A stretch of DNA of 64,000 bases. Source: a virus. Below, piece after piece: positions 9,950 to 59,179 of this stretch. The stretch is from positions 32,001-96,000 of IMG/VR virus record IMGVR_UViG_3300022699_000302. The stretch is one strand, 5' to 3'. A program made the position numbers and the translations under genes. The notes beneath the pieces are model-generated. The model did not search any database and was not told the DNA's origin. It was given only the letters and a program-made list of their open reading frames with translations. Numbering within the stretch: the first letter of the stretch is position 1; each line of letters starts with the position of its first letter.

Positions 9950-9958
9950 TCTTAGGCC
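9950..9958 (-). promoter_or_regulatory. Putative early promoter motif GGCCTAAGA
   Basis: GGCCTAAGACTATAGAG upstream of 9904. Confidence 0.65.
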
Positions 9959-16243: not shown

Positions 16244-16252
16244 GGCCTAAGA
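16244..16252 (+). promoter_or_regulatory. Putative early promoter motif GGCCTAAGA
   Basis: Follows the terminator, upstream of 16278. Confidence 0.65.
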
Positions 16253-41436: not shown

Positions 41437-42035
41437 AATACGTTTATCTTGATGCCGACGGGTTGGTGGTTGCTACGTCGAATGTGCAGCGCGAGATCAC
41501 GTTGCCCAAGTTGGTCGAACTTGGCGTGGTTGAGCGTATTGATGGCGCACCGGATGAGGTTTCCGCTCCGGGCGATTTCGGTTCAACCTCGACGTACACC
41601 AAGGTTAAGGGCGACGGCACCAGTACTGACGACTACGAGAAGTCCGACAACCTTCAACCGATCAAAGAACGTAGGTATCGTGAAATTGACTCACGCACGT
41701 CTCAGTTGATCGCACAGGGGTTCAAGCATCAGGACAAAACATTCAGTCTGTCGGAACAGGCGCAGAACAACATGATCGGGGTTCGCACGGCTATTGCGGA
41801 TCACCGGGCCAGCGGGACACTGCCAGACTTTGAATCAGCGTTCTTTCCGATCACGTTCAACACCTTGAACGACGACGACTCAATGAAGATTATCGACTCC
41901 GACGAATACATGGCGTTCTACGACGACGCGATGAGCACGATTCGGTCACACCTCGATGGAGGCACTGCACTCAAGAAAGACATCCGTGCCGCGACTACCA
42001 AGGCAGAAGTTGACGCTGTGGTAGACAACCGATGA
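41433..42035 (+). CDS. Tail fibre assembly/chaperone-like protein (DUF4376-like)
   Basis: IKERRYREID...GFKHQDKTFSLS..AQNN...ITFNTL....IRAATT.AEVDAV. Confidence 0.65.
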   Translation: MKYVYLDADGLVVATSNVQREITLPKLVELGVVERIDGAPDEVSAPGDFGSTSTYTKVKGDGTSTDDYEKSDNLQPIKERRYREIDSRTSQLIAQGFKHQDKTFSLSEQAQNNMIGVRTAIADHRASGTLPDFESAFFPITFNTLNDDDSMKIIDSDEYMAFYDDAMSTIRSHLDGGTALKKDIRAATTKAEVDAVVDNR

Positions 42036-42931
42036 GGGCTTTAGTGCTTAGCGGTGGCGGTTCCAAAGGATCCTGGCAGGCCGGTGCTATTAAAGCAGTG
42101 GCCGATAGTTGTTGGGGCAAAAAAGGCTTTGATTTCATCTCAGGCACAAGCGTTGGGGCCATTAATGCTGCCGGTCTAGGCATGTTCCGAAAGGATGAGT
42201 TTCGGAGCGCAGCTATCATCCTCGAAGGGATATGGTACGACCGCTTGAAGGTGTGGCGTCTAAAATTTCCCTGGTATCTTTGCGGGTTATGGAGTCCCTC
42301 CATAGGCACGAATAAGAGACTCGAGAAGTTCATCGACAAGAAGCTTAATCTCGAGGACCTTCAGAAGAGTGATGTCGATCTTTGCTTCAGTGCAGTCGAT
42401 ATCGAGAGCGGGGAACTCAAGCGATTCACTAAAGACTCGAATGATATCAAAGCCGCCATTATGGCTAGCGCCAGCTTTCCTGTAGCCTTTCCTCTACAAG
42501 AAGTGGAACGGAGGCTTTACACCGATGGCGGTGTACGAGACATAGCGCCGTTGAAGCCGGCCATCGAGGCAGGGGCCAGTGAGATTATTGTCTTGATGAC
42601 GGAAAACCCGTTTGAGGCAGCTGAGGTAGAGCCCCCCAAGAATGCTGTGTCGATGGCTATGAGGGTGGTTAATCTACTCACCGCTGAAGTTCTGCTCAAC
42701 GATATCGAGAGATGCTACAAGATCAACGAGCAGATCATTCATCACCCCGGCAAGCGAAAGGTTCTAGTTCATACCTATTGGCCGGAAAAACCCCTGGCGG
42801 ACTCTTTGAATTTCAAGACGAAGCTCATGAGAAAGCAGATCGAGCAGGGGTACGATGAGGTCCGAAAGCAGCTCGACGACGTCTCCCCGCTGGATAAACA
42901 AAGACAAGCTAAAAGAAAAGGACTTAGTTGA
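42032..42931 (+). CDS. Patatin-like phospholipase
   Basis: LVLSGGGSKG oxyanion loop, GTSVG catalytic Ser, ASASFP, DGG catalytic Asp. Confidence 0.92.
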   Translation: MRALVLSGGGSKGSWQAGAIKAVADSCWGKKGFDFISGTSVGAINAAGLGMFRKDEFRSAAIILEGIWYDRLKVWRLKFPWYLCGLWSPSIGTNKRLEKFIDKKLNLEDLQKSDVDLCFSAVDIESGELKRFTKDSNDIKAAIMASASFPVAFPLQEVERRLYTDGGVRDIAPLKPAIEAGASEIIVLMTENPFEAAEVEPPKNAVSMAMRVVNLLTAEVLLNDIERCYKINEQIIHHPGKRKVLVHTYWPEKPLADSLNFKTKLMRKQIEQGYDEVRKQLDDVSPLDKQRQAKRKGLS

Positions 42932-44757: not shown

Positions 44758-45337
44758 GGGTCTCTCTCAATTCAGTCAATAAAGGGTCCAGTTCTTTTTT
44801 GTTAGTCTCCAGCTGTTTAACTAGTTCCCGCTCTCTGTGTCTTAGCCGTTCATAGGACTGGCGAGTGAATCGTCCTTGTTGGTGGTACTGAGTGATCTGA
44901 TTCAGGACTTTAATCAGCTCTTCCTGGAGAGTCATGTGCAGAGCAGCAGACCACACGAAATTTCGCCAGCACCTGATCTTACTTGCGGCTTCTTGGGCCA
45001 GGGTCCCGGGAGTATGCTCGCCTACGCAAACTCCGTCTTCTTCTGTTGCTCCAGGAAAAATTTCAGGATCATCTTTGTACCAAGGATACCCTAATACCGG
45101 TCCTAGCGACTGTTCAACATCGACGAGTTCTCGGTGATACGCTGTATCCAGTCGATCTGCTTCGCTCATCAGGTTTTCGATAAAGGAGGCGGATCTCTTT
45201 AGAGGATCTCGAAGATAAGGAAATTTTTTACTCAGAGAGTCTAGTATCTTGGGCAGTTCGAGATTGGACGGATCATTTCGAACGCTCTTCTTTTTCTCGT
45301 CGGTAGTCTCTGGGAATGAGGGCTTTTCGTTCGGCAT
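44663..45337 (-). CDS. Hypothetical protein
   Basis: 224-aa ORF overlapping both neighbours; boundaries uncertain. Confidence 0.55.
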   Translation of the reverse strand: MPNEKPSFPETTDEKKKSVRNDPSNLELPKILDSLSKKFPYLRDPLKRSASFIENLMSEADRLDTAYHRELVDVEQSLGPVLGYPWYKDDPEIFPGATEEDGVCVGEHTPGTLAQEAASKIRCWRNFVWSAALHMTLQEELIKVLNQITQYHQQGRFTRQSYERLRHRERELVKQLETNKKELDPLLTELRETHESYAELQKGRDRKKDPKGKGPGDDVQGAPI

Positions 45338-45758
45338 CTTCTTTCAACCTTTCTTTGATATCAGCCAAGCTTCTGAGTAATTTGAGTGTCCCTTCAGCAT
45401 GCCAGTCACGGACATCAGGAGAAGCGTATTTGAGATGATCAATGGCAGCCTCCAGCTCTTTGATATAGAGGTCACGCCACTTTATCTGCTGGCCAACAGG
45501 AGTAATAAGCAGTTCCGATACGGACTCCCAGTCGACCTCCCCTCTGGCCAGGCGTACACCACGATCGTGATTACACCGTTTATGGGTTAAGCGGATGTTC
45601 TCCAGCGTGTTATTGCCGCCGAAACTGCGGGGTAAGATATGGTCGATCGATGTGTCCTTCATCTTCATTTTCTCTCCGCAGATAGCACACCTACCGTTTT
45701 GTCGGAGGAACAGTTTCTGCTTTCGGCGCCGTGACGGCTTCTTACGTTCATTTACCAT
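45273..45758 (-). CDS. HNH endonuclease
   Basis: CAICG...SIDHILPRSFGGNNTLENIRLTHKRCNHDRG. Confidence 0.9.
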   Translation of the reverse strand: MVNERKKPSRRRKQKLFLRQNGRCAICGEKMKMKDTSIDHILPRSFGGNNTLENIRLTHKRCNHDRGVRLARGEVDWESVSELLITPVGQQIKWRDLYIKELEAAIDHLKYASPDVRDWHAEGTLKLLRSLADIKERLKEDAERKALIPRDYRREKEERSK

Positions 45759-46252
45759 GCATTCCCCAACCCATCCCAAGGGACCAAGCTGACGATCCAC
45801 TGACTCCTGCCACTTGAACTCATGGGGGCTTTATTGATGTGAGAGATTAGAAAGATGTCCTCGTTCCCTGAAGGTTTTTCAACAACTTTGGTGCTTCCGG
45901 TGACTATCGAGGGGGTCGTCTCCTTGAGAATCATACGGTCGCGTACACGGTAGTCTTCTGCGAAGAGGATAAGATATGAGCGATCGCCATTGATGATCTG
46001 CTGGTACTCTTCTGACTTGATCTTAAGGACATGCTCGACGGCCTGAAAGTCTCTCACGGTTCCTGATTTATCACAAGACGCACAGACGCAGCGATTCATA
46101 CGATTCCACTCTACGTCGCCGAAATCGGAAGTGCCGTCATCGAAGACGTCGAACATTGCAGTACCCTCGATTTTAAATTGTCGGTTGTTACCGCATTTCG
46201 GACAACGAAATCCCTCCAAGCAATTCGTGTTTCTTTCGGTTGAATCATTCAT
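45752..46252 (-). CDS. Zn ribbon fused to ASCH/DUF3850-like domain
   Basis: CPKCG...CASC, then HVLKIKSEEYQQIING..SY....DYRVRDRMILKE. Confidence 0.6.
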   Translation of the reverse strand: MNDSTERNTNCLEGFRCPKCGNNRQFKIEGTAMFDVFDDGTSDFGDVEWNRMNRCVCASCDKSGTVRDFQAVEHVLKIKSEEYQQIINGDRSYLILFAEDYRVRDRMILKETTPSIVTGSTKVVEKPSGNEDIFLISHINKAPMSSSGRSQWIVSLVPWDGLGNAW

Positions 46253-47249: not shown

Positions 47250-47258
47250 TCTTAGGCC
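47250..47258 (-). promoter_or_regulatory. Putative early promoter motif GGCCTAAGA
   Basis: GGCCTAAGACTGTAGAG. Confidence 0.65.
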
Positions 47259-47900: not shown

Positions 47901-48518
47901 CGGTTCACTCGCGGTCGACGTTGCTGTCCGTGTGTACGGCTCACTCTGCGGCAGTGTTACAGTTGTTGACGACGATTCACTTCTACGGCACGGCGTGGCT
48001 CACCTCGTACGGTTCACTCTTTTTGTACGGAACAGTTCTACGTCCCGGTTCACTCCTAATGAAGCAGTTCCAGGTCTAGGCTCAATCCTGTGTAGTGGTA
48101 CAGTCGGTGACGACGTTTCGATCAGCGCTTGCGGTGTAATCCAGAGTTGACGGCTCATTCCGGGTGCTTGGTACATTCGGGCGGGACGATTCATTCAACG
48201 AATCGGTACAATTTCTTTCTGCGATTGCTTTTCCTCTGAGAAACAGTCAAAGCCTACGGCTCATTTCATCTAAACAAAGCTTTCGCCAATGTCGATTCAT
48301 TCTGTTCATGCGTAGCTATCTTTTGATGTGATTCATTCGAGGCAAGCGGTACAGTCTCTTATGACGAGTCATTCGACGCAAACACTACAGTCAAATATGC
48401 CGATTCATTCGTTTGTTTTGGAGCAGTTCCTCCTGCCGATTCGATTTGTTACTCCGGTACTGACGTGTGTTACGTCTCGGTCGCGCGGATCGAAACAGTT
48501 ACCTGCTTCGATTAAAGG
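47901..48518 (-). repeat. 36-nt dual-repeat/dual-spacer array 1 (TIGR-like), 17 units
   Basis: Unit starts on + at 47901, 47937, 47973, 48010, 48046, 48078, 48114, 48151, 48187, 48222, 48257, 48293, 48329, 48365, 48401, 48437, 48473, 48509. Minus-strand consensus GARTGARYCG-N8-RACTGTWCCR-N8. Confidence 0.85.
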
Positions 48519-48520
48519 TG

Positions 48521-48650
48521 ATCAGGGCGACAAGGTGGCGTAGAGATACTAGAGCTCTTCCAGTTGAGCTACGGCCGAAGCCGACGGGACTCGAACCCGC
48601 AACCTCTTCGTTATCAGCGAAATGTAATCCCTACAGGTATTCGCCCTGAT
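48521..48650 (-). ncRNA. yrlA: YrlA-type Y RNA (tRNA-like, T arm before D arm)
   Basis: 10-bp terminal stem ATCAGGGCGA/TCGCCCTGAT with CCTTG; T arm GCGGGTTCGAGTCCCGT; CGGC-TTCG-GCCG closed acceptor; D arm TAGCTCAACTGGAAGAGC. Confidence 0.85.
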
Positions 48651-48651
48651 T

Positions 48652-48816
48652 TTAAATCTCATCGAATTCAGTGAGTTGGTGCTGGTCACGCTCTTTCGGG
48701 CTCATATTATCCCAGCAGCTCTTACAGACCACCGGGTACCCATGAGAATCCTCAAAGCAGCTTCCGCAGCACGAGCATTGAAGGCCTTCGACGATATCGT
48801 CAGCAATCTCTCCCAT
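48652..48816 (-). CDS. Small Cys-rich (Zn-finger) protein, 54 aa
   Basis: MGEIADDIVEGLQCSCCG...HGYPVVCKSCW; not in the ORF track (<60 aa). Confidence 0.65.
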   Translation of the reverse strand: MGEIADDIVEGLQCSCCGSCFEDSHGYPVVCKSCWDNMSPKERDQHQLTEFDEI

Positions 48817-48846
48817 CACTTCTTCTTTGCGTGAGATAAAAAGAAG

Positions 48847-48949
48847 CCACCGACAGGTCGCGTCATAAGCCTATCCCCTCTCGTCATCGGCGGATTTCCA
48901 GGGAGACGTGACTACAGGGAGCTTCGTACCCAAGATGGGCTGTCGGTGG
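48847..48949 (-). ncRNA. Unknown structured RNA E
   Basis: Perfect 10-bp terminal stem CCACCGACAG/CTGTCGGTGG. Confidence 0.6.
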
Positions 48950-48975
48950 TGCCACTCCTCAAGCGGCAAAACAGA

Positions 48976-49113
48976 GAGAGTAACTGGGGGAAGGCTACTA
49001 TTCCCGGGGAAAGGCGGTCGCGACAGGTCAAACCTTTCCGTCTTCTTGTGTGACTTCAACCCTTCGTGCATCACACTCAGACGCCCTCGTTGTTTTGAAC
49101 ACCAGTTACTCTC
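48976..49113 (-). ncRNA. Unknown structured RNA D
   Basis: Perfect 12-bp terminal stem GAGAGTAACTGG/CCAGTTACTCTC with internal hairpins. Confidence 0.65.
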
Positions 49114-49121
49114 AAAAGGCT

Positions 49122-49230
49122 AGCAGCAGGCGCGGGTCGTCCGTCTTTCTAAAGCGCCCCCGAGCGCGGGATCTGCGCCGGCGCCGGGCCGAGGTTTAGG
49201 TGCCTCGGTAGCCACCATGTTCCTGCTGCT
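49122..49230 (-). ncRNA. Unknown structured RNA C
   Basis: 9-bp terminal stem AGCAGCAGG/CCTGCTGCT; GC-rich internal hairpins. Confidence 0.6.
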
Positions 49231-49243
49231 GTAAGGAAGGTCA

Positions 49244-49371
49244 GGGAGTAGGGTGTATACTGTGCCGTTCGGACTATAATCCTACCCACCTCTCGGCTTC
49301 GACGTGTATTTCAACACGCTAGGCCAGCCACCCATCGGCTATTTGCCTCTAGGCCACACTCGCCTACTCCC
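49244..49371 (-). ncRNA. Unknown structured RNA B
   Basis: 9-bp terminal stem GGGAGTAGG/CCTACTCCC with internal hairpins. Confidence 0.6.
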
Positions 49372-49381
49372 ATAAAACCAT

Positions 49382-49494
49382 GCGCGGAGAAACTACTGGC
49401 CGGCAGTGGGTCCAAACCCGAAAGCCTATCCCGACTCAGCAGGGTGTGCCATCGAAGGCAGCAGATTCCTAAAGGTCTGCCACTCTCCCCGCGC
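49382..49494 (-). ncRNA. Unknown structured RNA A
   Basis: 11-bp terminal stem GCGCGGGGAGA/TTTCTCCGCGC whose mismatches are G-U pairs only on the minus strand; starts ~15 nt after the promoter motif. Confidence 0.65.
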
Positions 49495-49509
49495 GAAAAG
49501 TGTCTACTG

Positions 49510-49518
49510 TCTTAGGCC
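49510..49518 (-). promoter_or_regulatory. Putative early promoter motif GGCCTAAGA driving the ncRNA cluster
   Basis: GGCCTAAGACAGTAGA. Confidence 0.65.
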
Positions 49519-49538
49519 GAACTCGGCCGGGAAAATGG

Positions 49539-49682
49539 TGCGGTGACAAGGTGTTGGAGAGATATTTACGCGCTCTATCCACTGAGCTACCCCACCACTT
49601 AGCTATGGTGGTGGGGGTGAGGAATCGAACCTCACGACCTCGTCCTTATGATGGAATGTAATCCCTCACGGCATTCACCGCA
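49539..49682 (-). ncRNA. yrlA: YrlA-type Y RNA (tRNA-like, T arm before D arm)
   Basis: Terminal stem TGCGGTGA/TCACCGCA with CCTTG; T arm GTGAGGTTCGATTCCTCAC; closed acceptor CCCCACCA..TGGTGGGG; D arm TAGCTCAGTGGATAGAGC; adjacent to Ro60. Confidence 0.87.
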
Positions 49683-50010
49683 TTTTCGTTTCGCGTCTCA
49701 GGCACAATCGGCTGCTACGACTCGTTCTTCATGTGCGCTACAGACGATATAGGCAACTCATTCAGACACTACGAGACCGTCTAGTTTGACGATTCGCTCG
49801 GTTGGTTCGAGACGCTCTAGAGATCCAGCTCGTTCTTCATGCACGTTGTGGTCATTTGAAGTGACTCACTCATTGACTACGGAGCCTGCGTTCAGCACGG
49901 TTCATTTTGCATCGGAGGATACGGTCGTCTGTGACGATTCAATGTTGGCGGACCGACAAGGTTGTGTGGAGTCACGGTTCATTTCCAGTAATGATGTAGA
50001 CCCCTACGGC
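49682..50010 (-). repeat. 36-nt dual-repeat array 2 (TIGR-like), ~9 units
   Basis: Unit starts on + at 49682, 49718, 49754, 49790, 49826, 49862, 49898 (36 apart), then 49935 and 49975; same two motifs as array 1. Confidence 0.78.
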
Positions 50011-50020
50011 ATTCGGTCCA

Positions 50021-50072: not shown

Positions 50073-51686
50073 TTATACCAGGCCCTTCTTGATGGCGTCA
50101 ACCCAGTGATTCGTGCCCCCTCTGTCTTCCAGGAAGGTTGAGATGGCGTCGAACACTGAGTCATTGAACCCCCCAACATTCAGAACGTCGGGACGATTCA
50201 CGACCTGTGTGGTCGGGTGGGGCTGAAGGTCGATTAAGACCAACTTGGCATCGGGTCGGTCGGCTCGCTTTTTCCACTCATCCCAGTAATACTGCAGACC
50301 AGTACGATTCTTGGTGTAGTGGCGTGCAGGATCATTGGAGAAGTCCGCCCAGGACTCCATGTCCGAGAGAATGACAACAGCATCGAGATCGAATATCTTG
50401 TTGTCGATCAAGTACTGGATCGCCGAACTACAATCAGTCCCCCCGCCGGAACGTGCCAGCTGATTTACCAGGGTAAAAATGGAGTCACGGTCGGTAACCG
50501 ACGCGAGTTTCGCTGCAGTATCAAATTGGACGACCTTTGCGTCGGGCTGGGAGTGAAGGATGCATGCTGCCATGAGCGCTGCAACCTCACAGCATCGCAC
50601 GTCCCGGGCACCGGCACGCCTCCAGCCTCCCCGGGTGGTGGCCTTACCGACTGCGAGAGCTTGCATCGAGTACGACACGTCCACGCAAACAGCTGCCTTT
50701 CCGAAACGGGGCACGTTATCGATCGAGATCTCGACCGTATCGTGCAAGGCATTTTTGATCTTGGTCGGAATGCCTTCATTGAGGTGGCGGTAGGTCTGGT
50801 AGAGCTGGTACGGGAAGATCCGCTGCTTCTTGATTTGCTCCACATCGGTCAGCTGTTCGACTGCATACTCGACGAATCCCGTATCCTTGAGCACTTCATG
50901 GCGCTCCAGGGTATTGAGGTTCATCCGAAGAGCATGAAGTCCCATCTGGTGCCCCAAGACCTTCCAGTCCCGGGTCGAGAGATCGGGGATCGAAGTCAGG
51001 AGGCGAAACTCGATGCCCTTGGGCTTGCGGTTGCGATACCCCGCCTTCCATTCCTCGAAAACCTTCGCTACTTCGGGGAGCAGCTCCTCGTTGTAGTTGC
51101 GCCCGATCAGGTATGCATACAGGTTTGAGCGGGCTTGATCCGAGGGCTTGGGATGGATCATGTGAATGATGTCAGCGATCGACGGATCGTTACCAACTGA
51201 ATCCCTGAACAGAGCGGCGGGATGACGCTTGTTCAACCAGTGCTCGATCAGCTTCTTCAGCCAGGTGCCGAAGCTTTTTCGACCGAACCGCCCCGAACGA
51301 ATGAATTGCGCGAAGTTGCGGAGCATCCTCCCGTTATCGATCACATGCGGGAATGCCTCGTTGAACTTAACACGGTCGACTCCGGTCTGACTTGCCGCGA
51401 ACGCCATGAGAGCGGCCGGCATATCCTTCATCCACGCTTTCTTGCGCGAGTACACCGCGACATCGATGACGAAGTTCGGGTCGACCTTGCGCGCAGCCTC
51501 CAGGAGGGTCTCGAGCTGCTTCTCGCCGGTGGCGTAGAACGTGTTGTAAAAAGTACCGGTACACGCGTATTGTGCCAAGAGCTCTTCCGGATCGAGCTTC
51601 ATAGCGGCGCCTCCAGCCTCGTTGACCGTATGCTTGACCTCGATCTCGTGGGCCTTGGCTGACTTGAACATTTTCTTGTTCGCCAT
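50073..51686 (-). CDS. rsr: Ro60/TROVE-vWA RNA-binding protein
   Basis: NEAGGAA..L.P...LAQYACTGTF.NTFYA...VYSR...MKDMPA TROVE motifs; vWA MIDAS DVSYS, GGGTDCS, LSDMESW, LIDLQP..GGFNDSVF. Confidence 0.93.
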   Translation of the reverse strand: MANKKMFKSAKAHEIEVKHTVNEAGGAAMKLDPEELLAQYACTGTFYNTFYATGEKQLETLLEAARKVDPNFVIDVAVYSRKKAWMKDMPAALMAFAASQTGVDRVKFNEAFPHVIDNGRMLRNFAQFIRSGRFGRKSFGTWLKKLIEHWLNKRHPAALFRDSVGNDPSIADIIHMIHPKPSDQARSNLYAYLIGRNYNEELLPEVAKVFEEWKAGYRNRKPKGIEFRLLTSIPDLSTRDWKVLGHQMGLHALRMNLNTLERHEVLKDTGFVEYAVEQLTDVEQIKKQRIFPYQLYQTYRHLNEGIPTKIKNALHDTVEISIDNVPRFGKAAVCVDVSYSMQALAVGKATTRGGWRRAGARDVRCCEVAALMAACILHSQPDAKVVQFDTAAKLASVTDRDSIFTLVNQLARSGGGTDCSSAIQYLIDNKIFDLDAVVILSDMESWADFSNDPARHYTKNRTGLQYYWDEWKKRADRPDAKLVLIDLQPHPTTQVVNRPDVLNVGGFNDSVFDAISTFLEDRGGTNHWVDAIKKGLV

Positions 51687-56737: not shown

Positions 56738-56746
56738 TCTTAGGCC
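56738..56746 (-). promoter_or_regulatory. Putative early promoter motif GGCCTAAGA
   Basis: Follows the glnS terminator; ~200-nt leader downstream. Confidence 0.6.
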
Positions 56747-56762: not shown

Positions 56763-58364
56763 TTAGGAGGAGCCCTTCTTTTGTTTCTTCTTCCACGGAT
56801 CTTTCAGTGGCACAACTTCGACTAAGTCGATACGGGTACCTACGATACAGACTTTGTAGTATCCTTTTCGCATGAGCTGCACGATCTGCCCGTGTTGGAG
56901 GTCAAGAGGCTCCATAAAGGCTATTGGGAGCTCTTTCATGCTGTCCTCATTGAACTCTCCGTTTTCGTCGAACAGGGGACCCAACTGGTAGATGTTGACC
57001 GGTCGAGCTCCTACGGAGACCCAATGGATCGTGCCTTTGACTTTTTCTTCCGGAAGGAGCTCACACTCGATACCGGTTAGATCCTCGTCCACCTGGAACG
57101 GTCCTACGTGCTTCAGGATACCGGCACCCTTGATCCGGACCTTACCTCCAGGCTTCAACCGTTTGAACTTCGGTGGCGGGTCCCCGGAGAAGTCATCCTT
57201 CTCGATCATGATGAAGTTGTCAACGAGAACCTTCCGAGTCCCGGCTTCGGGATCTTCGGGGTTGTTCTCGATCTCGACATACTCGCCGGCGGGCGATGAC
57301 AGATTGGAGATCCGAACCGATAACGGGTCGAAGACGCACATCACTCGCTGGGATGTCTTGTTGTAGCGGTCCCGGGCGATGTTCTCGAGCTTGTTCGGTG
57401 CGATCACCGAGTGGGTCTTGGACACCCCGATCTCTTCACAGAAGTCCTGGAGCATCTCGGGGGTATACCCCCGATTGCGGAGACCACGGAGAGTAGGCAT
57501 GCGGGGATCGTCCCATCCGTCGACCCTCTTGTCGTAGACCAGTTTACGGAGCTTGCGCTTTGAAAGCACCACTCCATCGACTTCGCATCTTGCGAATTCA
57601 CGCTGTTTTGGGAGGTAGTGGGTGTCGTAAACGGCATCATCGAATTCGGCGTGTTTGAGGAACCAGTTGTAGAGTTGGCGGTGCTCTTCGAATTCGAGAG
57701 TGCAGAGTGAGTGGGTGATCCTCTCGAGATAATCGACCAGAGGATGGCTGAAGTCGTAGCTGGGGTAGATGCAGTACTCAGCGCCGGTGCGGTGGTGAGG
57801 AGTGTAGATGATGCGGTACATCACAGGATCCCGCATCAGAGCACTGGGGTGCTTCCAGTCGATCTTGGCCCTGAGGGTGCACTCACCACCCTTGTAGATC
57901 CCCTTGAACATGTTGTCCCAACGGGCCAGGTTCTCAGAGATCGTGCGGTCGCGATAAGGGCTGGGCTTGAGCTCCTTGTTCGAGTCGCGGTAGTCGGCAG
58001 CATCTCGCGGCGAGAGATCACAGACATAAGCATCACCGCACTCCACCATCTTTCGAGCAACAGTTAGGAGATCCGGAAAGTAGTCCGAGGTGTAGGTGAC
58101 CTCGGGTTTGAATCGTAGTAGCCACGACAGATCTTCAATGATGGCCTTCTCATAGATCGGGGATTCGGTCAAAGGGTTGGTATCATCGAATCTGAGGTGG
58201 CATTTGCCCATGTACTGGGCGGCGATGCCGAAGTTGAGACACGCTGCTTTAGCATGCCCTAGATGCAGGTATCCGTTGGGTTCTGGCGGGAACCGAGTTC
58301 GCACCTCGGAGTACCGCCTTTCTTCGAGGTCCTTATCGATCTCGAGGGTGATGAAGTTCTTCAT
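56763..58364 (-). CDS. glnS: Glutaminyl-tRNA synthetase
   Basis: RTRFPPEPNGYLHLGHAK (HIGH), LRFDDTNP, YPSYDF.H..VD..E.ITHSLCTLEF, VLSKRKL (KMSKS equivalent), GWDDPRMPTLRG, KVKGTIHWVS. Confidence 0.95.
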   Translation of the reverse strand: MKNFITLEIDKDLEERRYSEVRTRFPPEPNGYLHLGHAKAACLNFGIAAQYMGKCHLRFDDTNPLTESPIYEKAIIEDLSWLLRFKPEVTYTSDYFPDLLTVARKMVECGDAYVCDLSPRDAADYRDSNKELKPSPYRDRTISENLARWDNMFKGIYKGGECTLRAKIDWKHPSALMRDPVMYRIIYTPHHRTGAEYCIYPSYDFSHPLVDYLERITHSLCTLEFEEHRQLYNWFLKHAEFDDAVYDTHYLPKQREFARCEVDGVVLSKRKLRKLVYDKRVDGWDDPRMPTLRGLRNRGYTPEMLQDFCEEIGVSKTHSVIAPNKLENIARDRYNKTSQRVMCVFDPLSVRISNLSSPAGEYVEIENNPEDPEAGTRKVLVDNFIMIEKDDFSGDPPPKFKRLKPGGKVRIKGAGILKHVGPFQVDEDLTGIECELLPEEKVKGTIHWVSVGARPVNIYQLGPLFDENGEFNEDSMKELPIAFMEPLDLQHGQIVQLMRKGYYKVCIVGTRIDLVEVVPLKDPWKKKQKKGSS

Positions 58365-59170: not shown

Positions 59171-59179
59171 TCTTAGGCC
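59171..59179 (-). promoter_or_regulatory. Putative early promoter motif GGCCTAAGA
   Basis: GGCCTAAGAATATAGAG. Confidence 0.65.

Follow-up and report, generated by a model that had tools for sequence, protein, structure and literature searches.

Downstream of the Ro60 gene of a virus genome (IMG/VR record IMGVR_UViG_3300022699_000302, complete at 194,114 bp with direct terminal repeats), five structured RNAs, here called A to E, lie in tandem in an arrangement that is beyond chance, each module being sealed by its own 9- to 12-bp terminal stem. The window analyzed comprises bases 32001-96000 of that record (64,000 nt); coordinates are window positions unless another record is named, and the unit is read on the minus strand. 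On this strand the order is Ro60/Rsr, the short Y RNA Y3, a TIGR-type array, the Y RNA Y1, RNAs E to A, a small Cys-rich open reading frame (ORF), the Y RNA Y2, and a second TIGR-type array (TIGR array 1). We tentatively propose that A to E represent an array-like precursor of five small, stable RNAs made from the minus strand, and, as judged from their sequences, they appear to be new RNA families whose array layout is of a known kind. Two rivals are serious: a single RNA of ~665 nt, and a structured leader that meters read-through into the genes beyond it. Ro60 and the Y RNAs are conserved from bacteria to humans. The role of phage Ro60 systems is largely unknown, and biochemical work has been done on a single phage Ro60 (PMC12135203).

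The block begins with RNA E (49382..49494, minus strand; 113 nt), whose 11-bp closing stem, two G-U pairs included, has a pair probability of 0.97 and bounds a predicted four-way junction. A 10-nt linker holding a UUUU run (49372..49381) separates it from RNA D (49244..49371; 128 nt), where a 9-bp closing stem (pair probability, 0.88) is followed by a 3-nt bulge and then a second helix. Next come a pyrimidine-rich linker of 13 nt (49231..49243; CCUUCCUU) and RNA C (49122..49230; 109 nt), with a 9-bp closing stem (0.98) and again a predicted four-way junction. Beyond an 8-nt linker with a UUUU run (49114..49121) lies RNA B (48976..49113; 138 nt), which combines a 12-bp closing stem (0.98) with a predicted four- or five-way junction and a folding z-score of -3.35. 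The longest linker, of 26 nt (48950..48975), holds a UUUU run and then a hairpin of 7 to 8 bp (~48951-48970); it leads to RNA A (48847..48949; 103 nt), whose perfect 10-bp closing stem (0.97) doubles as a predicted terminator stem. The closing stems of A, B, C, and D are all perfect Watson-Crick helices, and those of all five RNAs are kept in the fold of the full 676-nt context, with mean pair probabilities of 0.88 to 0.98. A first-pass annotation of this DNA had described five adjacent segments, each bounded by an inverted repeat forming a 9- to 12-bp terminal stem, and its coordinates, segment lengths, and linker lengths all hold.

At least four nonoverlapping segments with closing stems of at least 9 bp were obtained in none of 2,000 dinucleotide shuffles of the unit, the maximum being three segments (in 2 shuffles). 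Across the whole 194-kb genome there are 86 perfect inverted repeats of at least 9 bp with a spacing of 50 to 160 nt, or ~0.44 per kb, and the succession Y2-A-B-C-D, to which E is added, is the sole run of four or more abutting repeats. The only other run of three in the genome, at 44921-45380, consists of abutting segments of 137, 173, and 153 nt with perfect 9-bp inverted repeats and lies within coding sequence.

Signals at both ends of the block support a dedicated minus-strand noncoding transcription unit. It is headed by a putative phage promoter motif (49500..49518, minus strand; GGCCTAAGACAGTAGACAC) of the GGCCTAAGA-N3-TAGAG-like type, of which there are 26 exact copies genome-wide. These are intergenic and typically stand a few bases beyond a hairpin with a TTTTCTTTT tail and 20 to 40 nt ahead of a ribosome-binding site, and the motif is enriched in the window (29 matches versus 12.4 expected from shuffles); it probably serves the phage's own transcription machinery as a promoter. 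Copies of GGCCTAAGA in the window include those at 9950-9958(-), 16244-16252(+), 47250-47258(-), 49510-49518(-), and 56738-56746(-). On the minus strand, 15 nt separate the end of one copy from RNA E, matching the distance from the first RNA given in the first-pass annotation. At the other end, the closing stem of A (CUGUCGGUGG) is directly followed by a U-rich tail, CUUCUUUUUAUCUCA (48832..48846, minus strand), which is like the phage's other terminator tails (e.g., ...TCTTTTCTTTTTATCTCAG before the promoter at 59179), and stem and tail together have the form of an intrinsic terminator. A simple terminator scanner misses it because the enclosed loop measures 83 nt. Furthermore, the five runs of at least four U residues in the 681-nt stretch are all confined to the linkers, the 5′ leader, and the tail, which account for 12% of its bases; the chance of all five landing there is roughly 0.12^5. 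The unit has no ORF longer than 71 amino acids, its longest frames being of 67 and 71 amino acids; for these short frames neither Pfam nor PHROG gave a match, and no protein homologue was found, even when the frames of the RNA region were run against protein databases in case a relative had been miscalled as a gene. A coding region was rejected on these grounds. Taken together, the promoter, the terminator tail, and the lack of a credible ORF delimit a promoter-to-terminator noncoding unit of ~665 nt at 49518-48832. The earlier idea of a polycistronic minus-strand noncoding unit is thus supported by the promoter, the tail, and the exclusion of U-runs from the modules, as well as by the array style of other Ro60 phages described below.

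Folding itself gives a mixed picture of the strand. D and E fold better on the minus strand by ~9 to 10 kcal/mol, whereas for A the two strands are equivalent, and C and A do as well or better on the plus strand. The first-pass annotation had taken G-U pairs in RNA A as favoring the minus strand; the closing stem of A has none, and the argument applies instead to E. Given that perfect inverted repeats are symmetric and strand-neutral, these folds would also fit a reading in which the repeats act at the DNA level as protein-binding, recombination, or replication sites. We consider this very improbable: the five arm pairs all differ in sequence and stand 83 to 114 nt apart, which suits no repeated DNA-binding site, and the G-U pairs, promoter, terminator, and U-runs are all strand-specific.

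The same bracketing of the whole stretch by one promoter and one terminator is what might be expected of a single large, multidomain RNA of ~665 nt that works unprocessed, like GOLLD and ROOL, with the modules as its domains. All five domains do persist in the full-length fold, and a strong U-tract directly follows the stem of A only. Moreover, large structured RNAs are known to sit near tRNA genes in phages. Nevertheless, Rfam models for GOLLD, ROOL, and other large noncoding RNAs gave no match here, either at the gathering score or at an E value of ≤10, and no pairing between domains is predicted. The punctuation of every linker by U-runs and the array style of related loci also fit separate units better, and we hence judge the single-RNA reading unlikely, if serious.

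The array style in question is seen in other phages with Ro60. Four large phage records found via Y-RNA patterns encode a Ro60 with 36 to 42% identity. In one of them (G001; 195 kb), the Ro60 gene occupies about the same map position as here; behind it come a YrlA RNA, a pair of short Y RNAs, a transfer-messenger RNA (tmRNA), probably a fourth Y RNA, and an array of tRNAs. Within this array, a 122-nt non-tRNA RNA with an 11-bp closing stem sits between two tRNA-Leu genes (L026:5116-5237) and is followed by UUCAUUUU. In another (G005), seven tandem Y-RNA-like genes, each with GAAUGC...UACAU, are interleaved with tRNAs directly downstream of Ro60 (L034:5120-6300, minus strand), and their linkers are pyrimidine-rich (e.g., UUUCCUCUUUUU). 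Some of these Y-RNA-like genes carry tRNA-like modules in the normal D-anticodon-T order. About 20 kb from the Ro60 gene of G005, a second locus (L020) has RNAs at 1445-1524 (80 nt), 1103-1245 (143 nt), and 770-870 (101 nt) beside a tmRNA and tRNAs, with closing stems of 13, 9, and 14 bp, respectively, and z-scores of -3.3 to -4.95. The stem-closed RNAs of G001 and L020 may form uncharacterized families in their own right. By analogy with G005 and G001, the A-to-E block appears to be organized like the RNA-gene arrays typical of this neighborhood, in that it consists of tandem stem-closed units with short, single-stranded, pyrimidine-rich linkers behind one promoter.

Comparisons with known RNA families were negative throughout. 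An Rfam search over the window returned no family at the gathering score, and a 2.5-kb search gave no match to A to E even at an E value of ≤10, in keeping with their initial description as unknown noncoding RNAs. They are not tRNAs, as had also been stated: ARAGORN, run both with introns and without, predicts none in the window, and the Rfam tRNA model matches only inside Y2. The YrlA/YrlB class of Y RNAs is defined by the motif GNCGAAN0-1G near the 5′ end, on the 5′ side of the terminal helix (Chen et al. 2014, PMC4201824). This motif is absent from all five 5′ strands (CCACCGACAG, GAGAGUAACUGG, AGCAGCAGG, GGGAGUAGG, and GCGCGGGGAGA); an internal GUCGAAG occurs only in D, at chance level. 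At an E value of ≤10 the Rfam YrlA model matches Y1 and Y2 only, and a profile of nine phage YrlA sequences found no match in the stretch (nhmmer with --max, E ≤ 100). Our own Y-module covariance model, R1, which was built from five short phage Y RNAs, recovers Y3, Y1, and Y2, and within A to E yields only noise (a 1.8-bit match, E = 6.5). The label “non-YrlA” given to these RNAs at first reading is therefore borne out by the motif, the Rfam model, the profile, and R1 alike. TIGR units are likewise not indicated, as Tandem Repeats Finder detects the period only in array 1 and A to E have neither the 36-nt register nor edge or loop repeats.

Several further candidates were rejected. tRNA-like or anticodon decoys can be set aside, as neither T-loops nor 7-nt loops of the anticodon type occur; box C/D or k-turn units for TasA, since no such motifs stand beside the stems; and 5S-rRNA-like RNAs, for want of an Rfam match. 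RtcB, RNA ligase, and a CCA-adding enzyme are all missing from the phage, and hence there is no local support for circularization or repair substrates. Antisense regulation of phage genes has only chance-level matches of 11 to 16 nt in its favor. The proposals of the first-pass annotation that these RNAs might be RNase decoys or antitoxin-like RNAs fared no better: anticodon-like loops and ToxI-type repeats are absent, and complementarity to the phage genome does not exceed chance.

RNA A weakly resembles Y3 and Y2 (z ~2.2), and RNA E has a faint likeness to the portion of Y2 that is tRNA-like (z = 1.4); both are nonsignificant after multiple comparisons; with every model test negative as well, derivation of A to E from Y RNAs was dropped. 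Along with the missing canonical Ro60 motif and the want of a homologue in any collection searched, such resemblances are what one could expect of decayed, nonfunctional remnants, e.g., degenerate Y-RNA or tRNA-like copies with surviving terminal stems. On the other hand, without selection one would hardly expect perfect stems of 9 to 12 bp, a promoter and terminator dedicated to the unit, and neat U-run punctuation to persist, and we find this explanation quite doubtful.

The searches for homologues covered phage, viral, and metagenome collections. A blastn search in distant mode with positions 48400-49800 found no match among 50,697 phage records. Neither Ro60, nor the neighboring AAA ATPase, nor a distant gene revealed a close relative among viral contigs, and Ro60 found only relatives of 40 to 43% identity among metagenome contigs. 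A Ro60 with 83% identity (P0002) is encoded on a contig of 3180 nt. A Y-RNA pattern scan gave 22 loci, some with true Y RNAs and none with an A-to-E-like sequence; no paralogue of A to E was found elsewhere in the genome. Scans with the motifs shared by A and D and by A and E (see below) yielded one chance match, to a terminator hairpin in an unrelated phage, and 102 chance matches, respectively. A 22-nt exact match to RNA D (GCCGAGAGGTGGGTAGGATTAT) in an ordinary terminator hairpin of an AT-rich, unrelated 267-kb phage (L030:181-215) was judged a coincidence.

Within the block, by contrast with the first impression that the five RNAs are dissimilar to each other, A and D share a block of 25 to 26 nt, CGAGAGG(N)GGRUAGGMUUAU, inside a longer alignable stretch (local alignment z = 4.3), and A and E have in common the 11-mer GGGAUAGGCUU. 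This sharing suggests duplication inside the block and, with it, growth of the family by duplication. A common hairpin-loop motif, GAGNN-GGG-R-UAGG, could be a candidate binding site. As read from the sequence, the A/D motif is also predicted to be able to pair with the start of the 3′ closing strand in both A and D, a capacity that would favor another interpretation, namely, that the block serves the Cys-rich ORF, Y2, and TIGR array 1 as a structured leader or attenuator. Here, the stem of A and its U-rich tail, which look like the phage's terminators, would set the level of read-through, perhaps via GAUAGG/CCUGUC pairing inside A. Indeed, on the minus strand the promoter motif does not recur in exact form between 49518 and 47258, and transcription must hence cross E to A to reach these genes. 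Yet five elaborate modules far exceed the needs of an attenuator, no ligand-binding family is matched, and the alternative pairing has no comparative support. While we take the leader reading seriously, its probability appears low.

Returning to the proposed array of five RNAs, we envisage that a phage polymerase transcribes the unit from the phage promoter motif and that transcription mostly ends at the closing stem of A with its U-rich tail. The transcript would fold during synthesis into five independent multibranched modules and one mini-hairpin, each module being sealed by its own 5′ and 3′ ends. Host endonucleases of the RNase E type might then cut the single-stranded U-rich linkers, and exonucleases might trim back to the stems, releasing five stable RNAs of ~100 to 140 nt protected by their paired termini. 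Cleavage in the linkers is suggested by analogy, because tRNA and Y-RNA arrays fill this neighborhood in other Ro60 phages; in Escherichia coli, polycistronic tRNA precursors are separated by RNase E cuts in A/U-rich spacers.

As for function, a role linked to the surrounding Ro60/Y-RNA machinery seems the most likely: the RNAs might be extra scaffolds or ligands with a noncanonical mode of binding, or structured RNAs that engage the same host RNases. Ro60 is also known to bind structured RNAs that are not Y RNAs and that carry a single-stranded 3′ tail (background in PMC12135203), and it is this, with the position of A to E, that suggests the link. A broader and rather improbable extension is that A to E, together with Ro60, the Y RNAs, and the TIGR arrays, constitute an RNA-based host-takeover or counter-defense island, in which they could, for example, be scaffolds bound by Ro60, TasA, or a host RNase (PNPase) without the canonical Y-RNA helix.

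Several observations weigh against the array proposal. The folding energy of the whole unit is unexceptional relative to shuffles (z = -0.84), and the z-scores of the single modules are modest (-1.9 to -3.4); fold stability being ordinary, the evidence rests on the architecture. No homologue of A to E was found in the collections searched. Marks of RNase P processing are missing from A to E (no T-arm and no CCA), and classical RNase III sites would need longer closing stems. As A to E lack the Ro60-binding motif, a tie to Ro60 is suggested by their position. Finally, the stretch between A and the Cys-rich ORF, Y2, and TIGR array 1 has no promoter motif, and the unit may thus serve as their leader as well.

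The neighborhood of the unit is itself rich in RNA genes. The Ro60/Rsr gene (50073..51686, minus strand) encodes a protein of 537 amino acids with TROVE and Ro60 vWA domains, and the three Y RNAs and two TIGR arrays share its strand and that of the unit. A to E sit 0.6 to 1.2 kb downstream of it and have paired ends, which agrees with the placement of Y RNAs within ~2 kb of Ro60. Y3, a short Y RNA directly after Ro60 (~49944-50020), is recognized by R1 with an E value of 2e-18; it is followed by a TIGR-type array with a 36-nt period (49682-49943). The apical part of Y3 (GGAAAUGAACCGUG) resembles the edge repeat of this array, which starts right after it, and Y3 and the first guide unit of the array seem to overlap. 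Y1, just upstream of the unit (49537..49681), is of the YrlA type (Rfam YrlA, 44.6 bits, E = 4e-8, below the gathering score; R1, E = 8e-6), as is Y2 (48521..48647; Rfam YrlA, 56.1 bits, E = 2e-11; R1, E = 4e-4), which lies downstream of the unit and the Cys-rich ORF. The second TIGR-type array, TIGR array 1, extends over 48517-47901 in a 36-nt register. The Cys-rich ORF, between RNA A and Y2 (48652-48816, minus strand), has 55 codons with two CxxC pairs; its ribosome-binding site is weak, and it lacks a separate promoter motif. Another Ro60 phage likewise has, between Y RNAs, a small ORF that contains Cys (L016:6812-6991). Farther away, the window holds a full-length class I Glu/Gln-tRNA synthetase gene (56763-58364, minus strand; Pfam tRNA-synt_1c, E = 4e-90), a patatin-like phospholipase gene (42032-42931, plus strand; E = 3.5e-25), and an HNH endonuclease gene (45273-45800, minus strand; E = 4e-11). 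ARAGORN finds only two tRNA-like genes in the whole genome, both outside the window at genome positions 122788-122942: a CUA (amber-reading) tRNA and a four-base anticodon call.

Behind a single Ro60 gene, the locus thus gathers five structured RNAs in addition to three Y RNAs and two TIGR guide arrays. Provided that these five are stable products, A to E would be new RNA families and would offer a test set for recruitment by Ro60 without the canonical helix, for the processing of non-tRNA arrays in phages, and for cooperation between Ro60 and TIGR-Tas. Were Ro60 to bind them by another mode, the set of partners in Ro60 ribonucleoproteins of prokaryotic viruses would be wider. Should they prove to be only a leader or remnants, the interest would be local.

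Among known systems, TIGR arrays share the locus and strand of A to E and likewise consist of tandem noncoding units processed from a precursor; the tigRNAs include a stem-loop variant with variable palindromic flanks (Faure et al. 2025, PMC12045711). Unlike these, A to E have neither the 36-nt period nor box C/D-like edge or loop repeats by their stems, and their units are 3 to 4 times longer. A second parallel is provided by the tRNA cluster of phage T4, in which rnaD and rnaC are processed together with the tRNAs. These two RNAs (119 and 139 nt, respectively) follow tRNA-Arg with gaps of 1 and 6 nt and are in the size range of A to E, and relatives of the present phage have tRNAs and a tmRNA at their Ro60 locus. 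The two T4 RNAs show no sequence similarity to A to E, however; rnaC has a T-arm like that of tRNAs, and both lack a long terminal stem to seal them. The functions of rnaC and rnaD, the species 1 and 2 RNAs, are still unknown (PMC9697503). Similar in form are the stem-closed RNAs of G001 and L020, which are 80 to 143 nt long, have closing stems of 9 to 14 bp, are multibranched, fold with significant stability (z = -2.6 to -4.95), lie between tRNA or tmRNA genes, and have U-rich 3′ flanks. They bear no significant sequence similarity to A to E (z ≤ 1.5) and stand as single elements among tRNAs, with no five-member block. The Y RNAs (RF02553) differ from A to E in possessing the GNCGAAN0-1G motif, the bulged Ro60-binding helix, and the T-arm/D-arm mimic. 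They nevertheless share with them a place beside Ro60 on the same strand, a length of 100 to 140 nt, paired ends around a variable module, and, as in the seven-copy array of G005, a tandem layout with short U/C-rich linkers.
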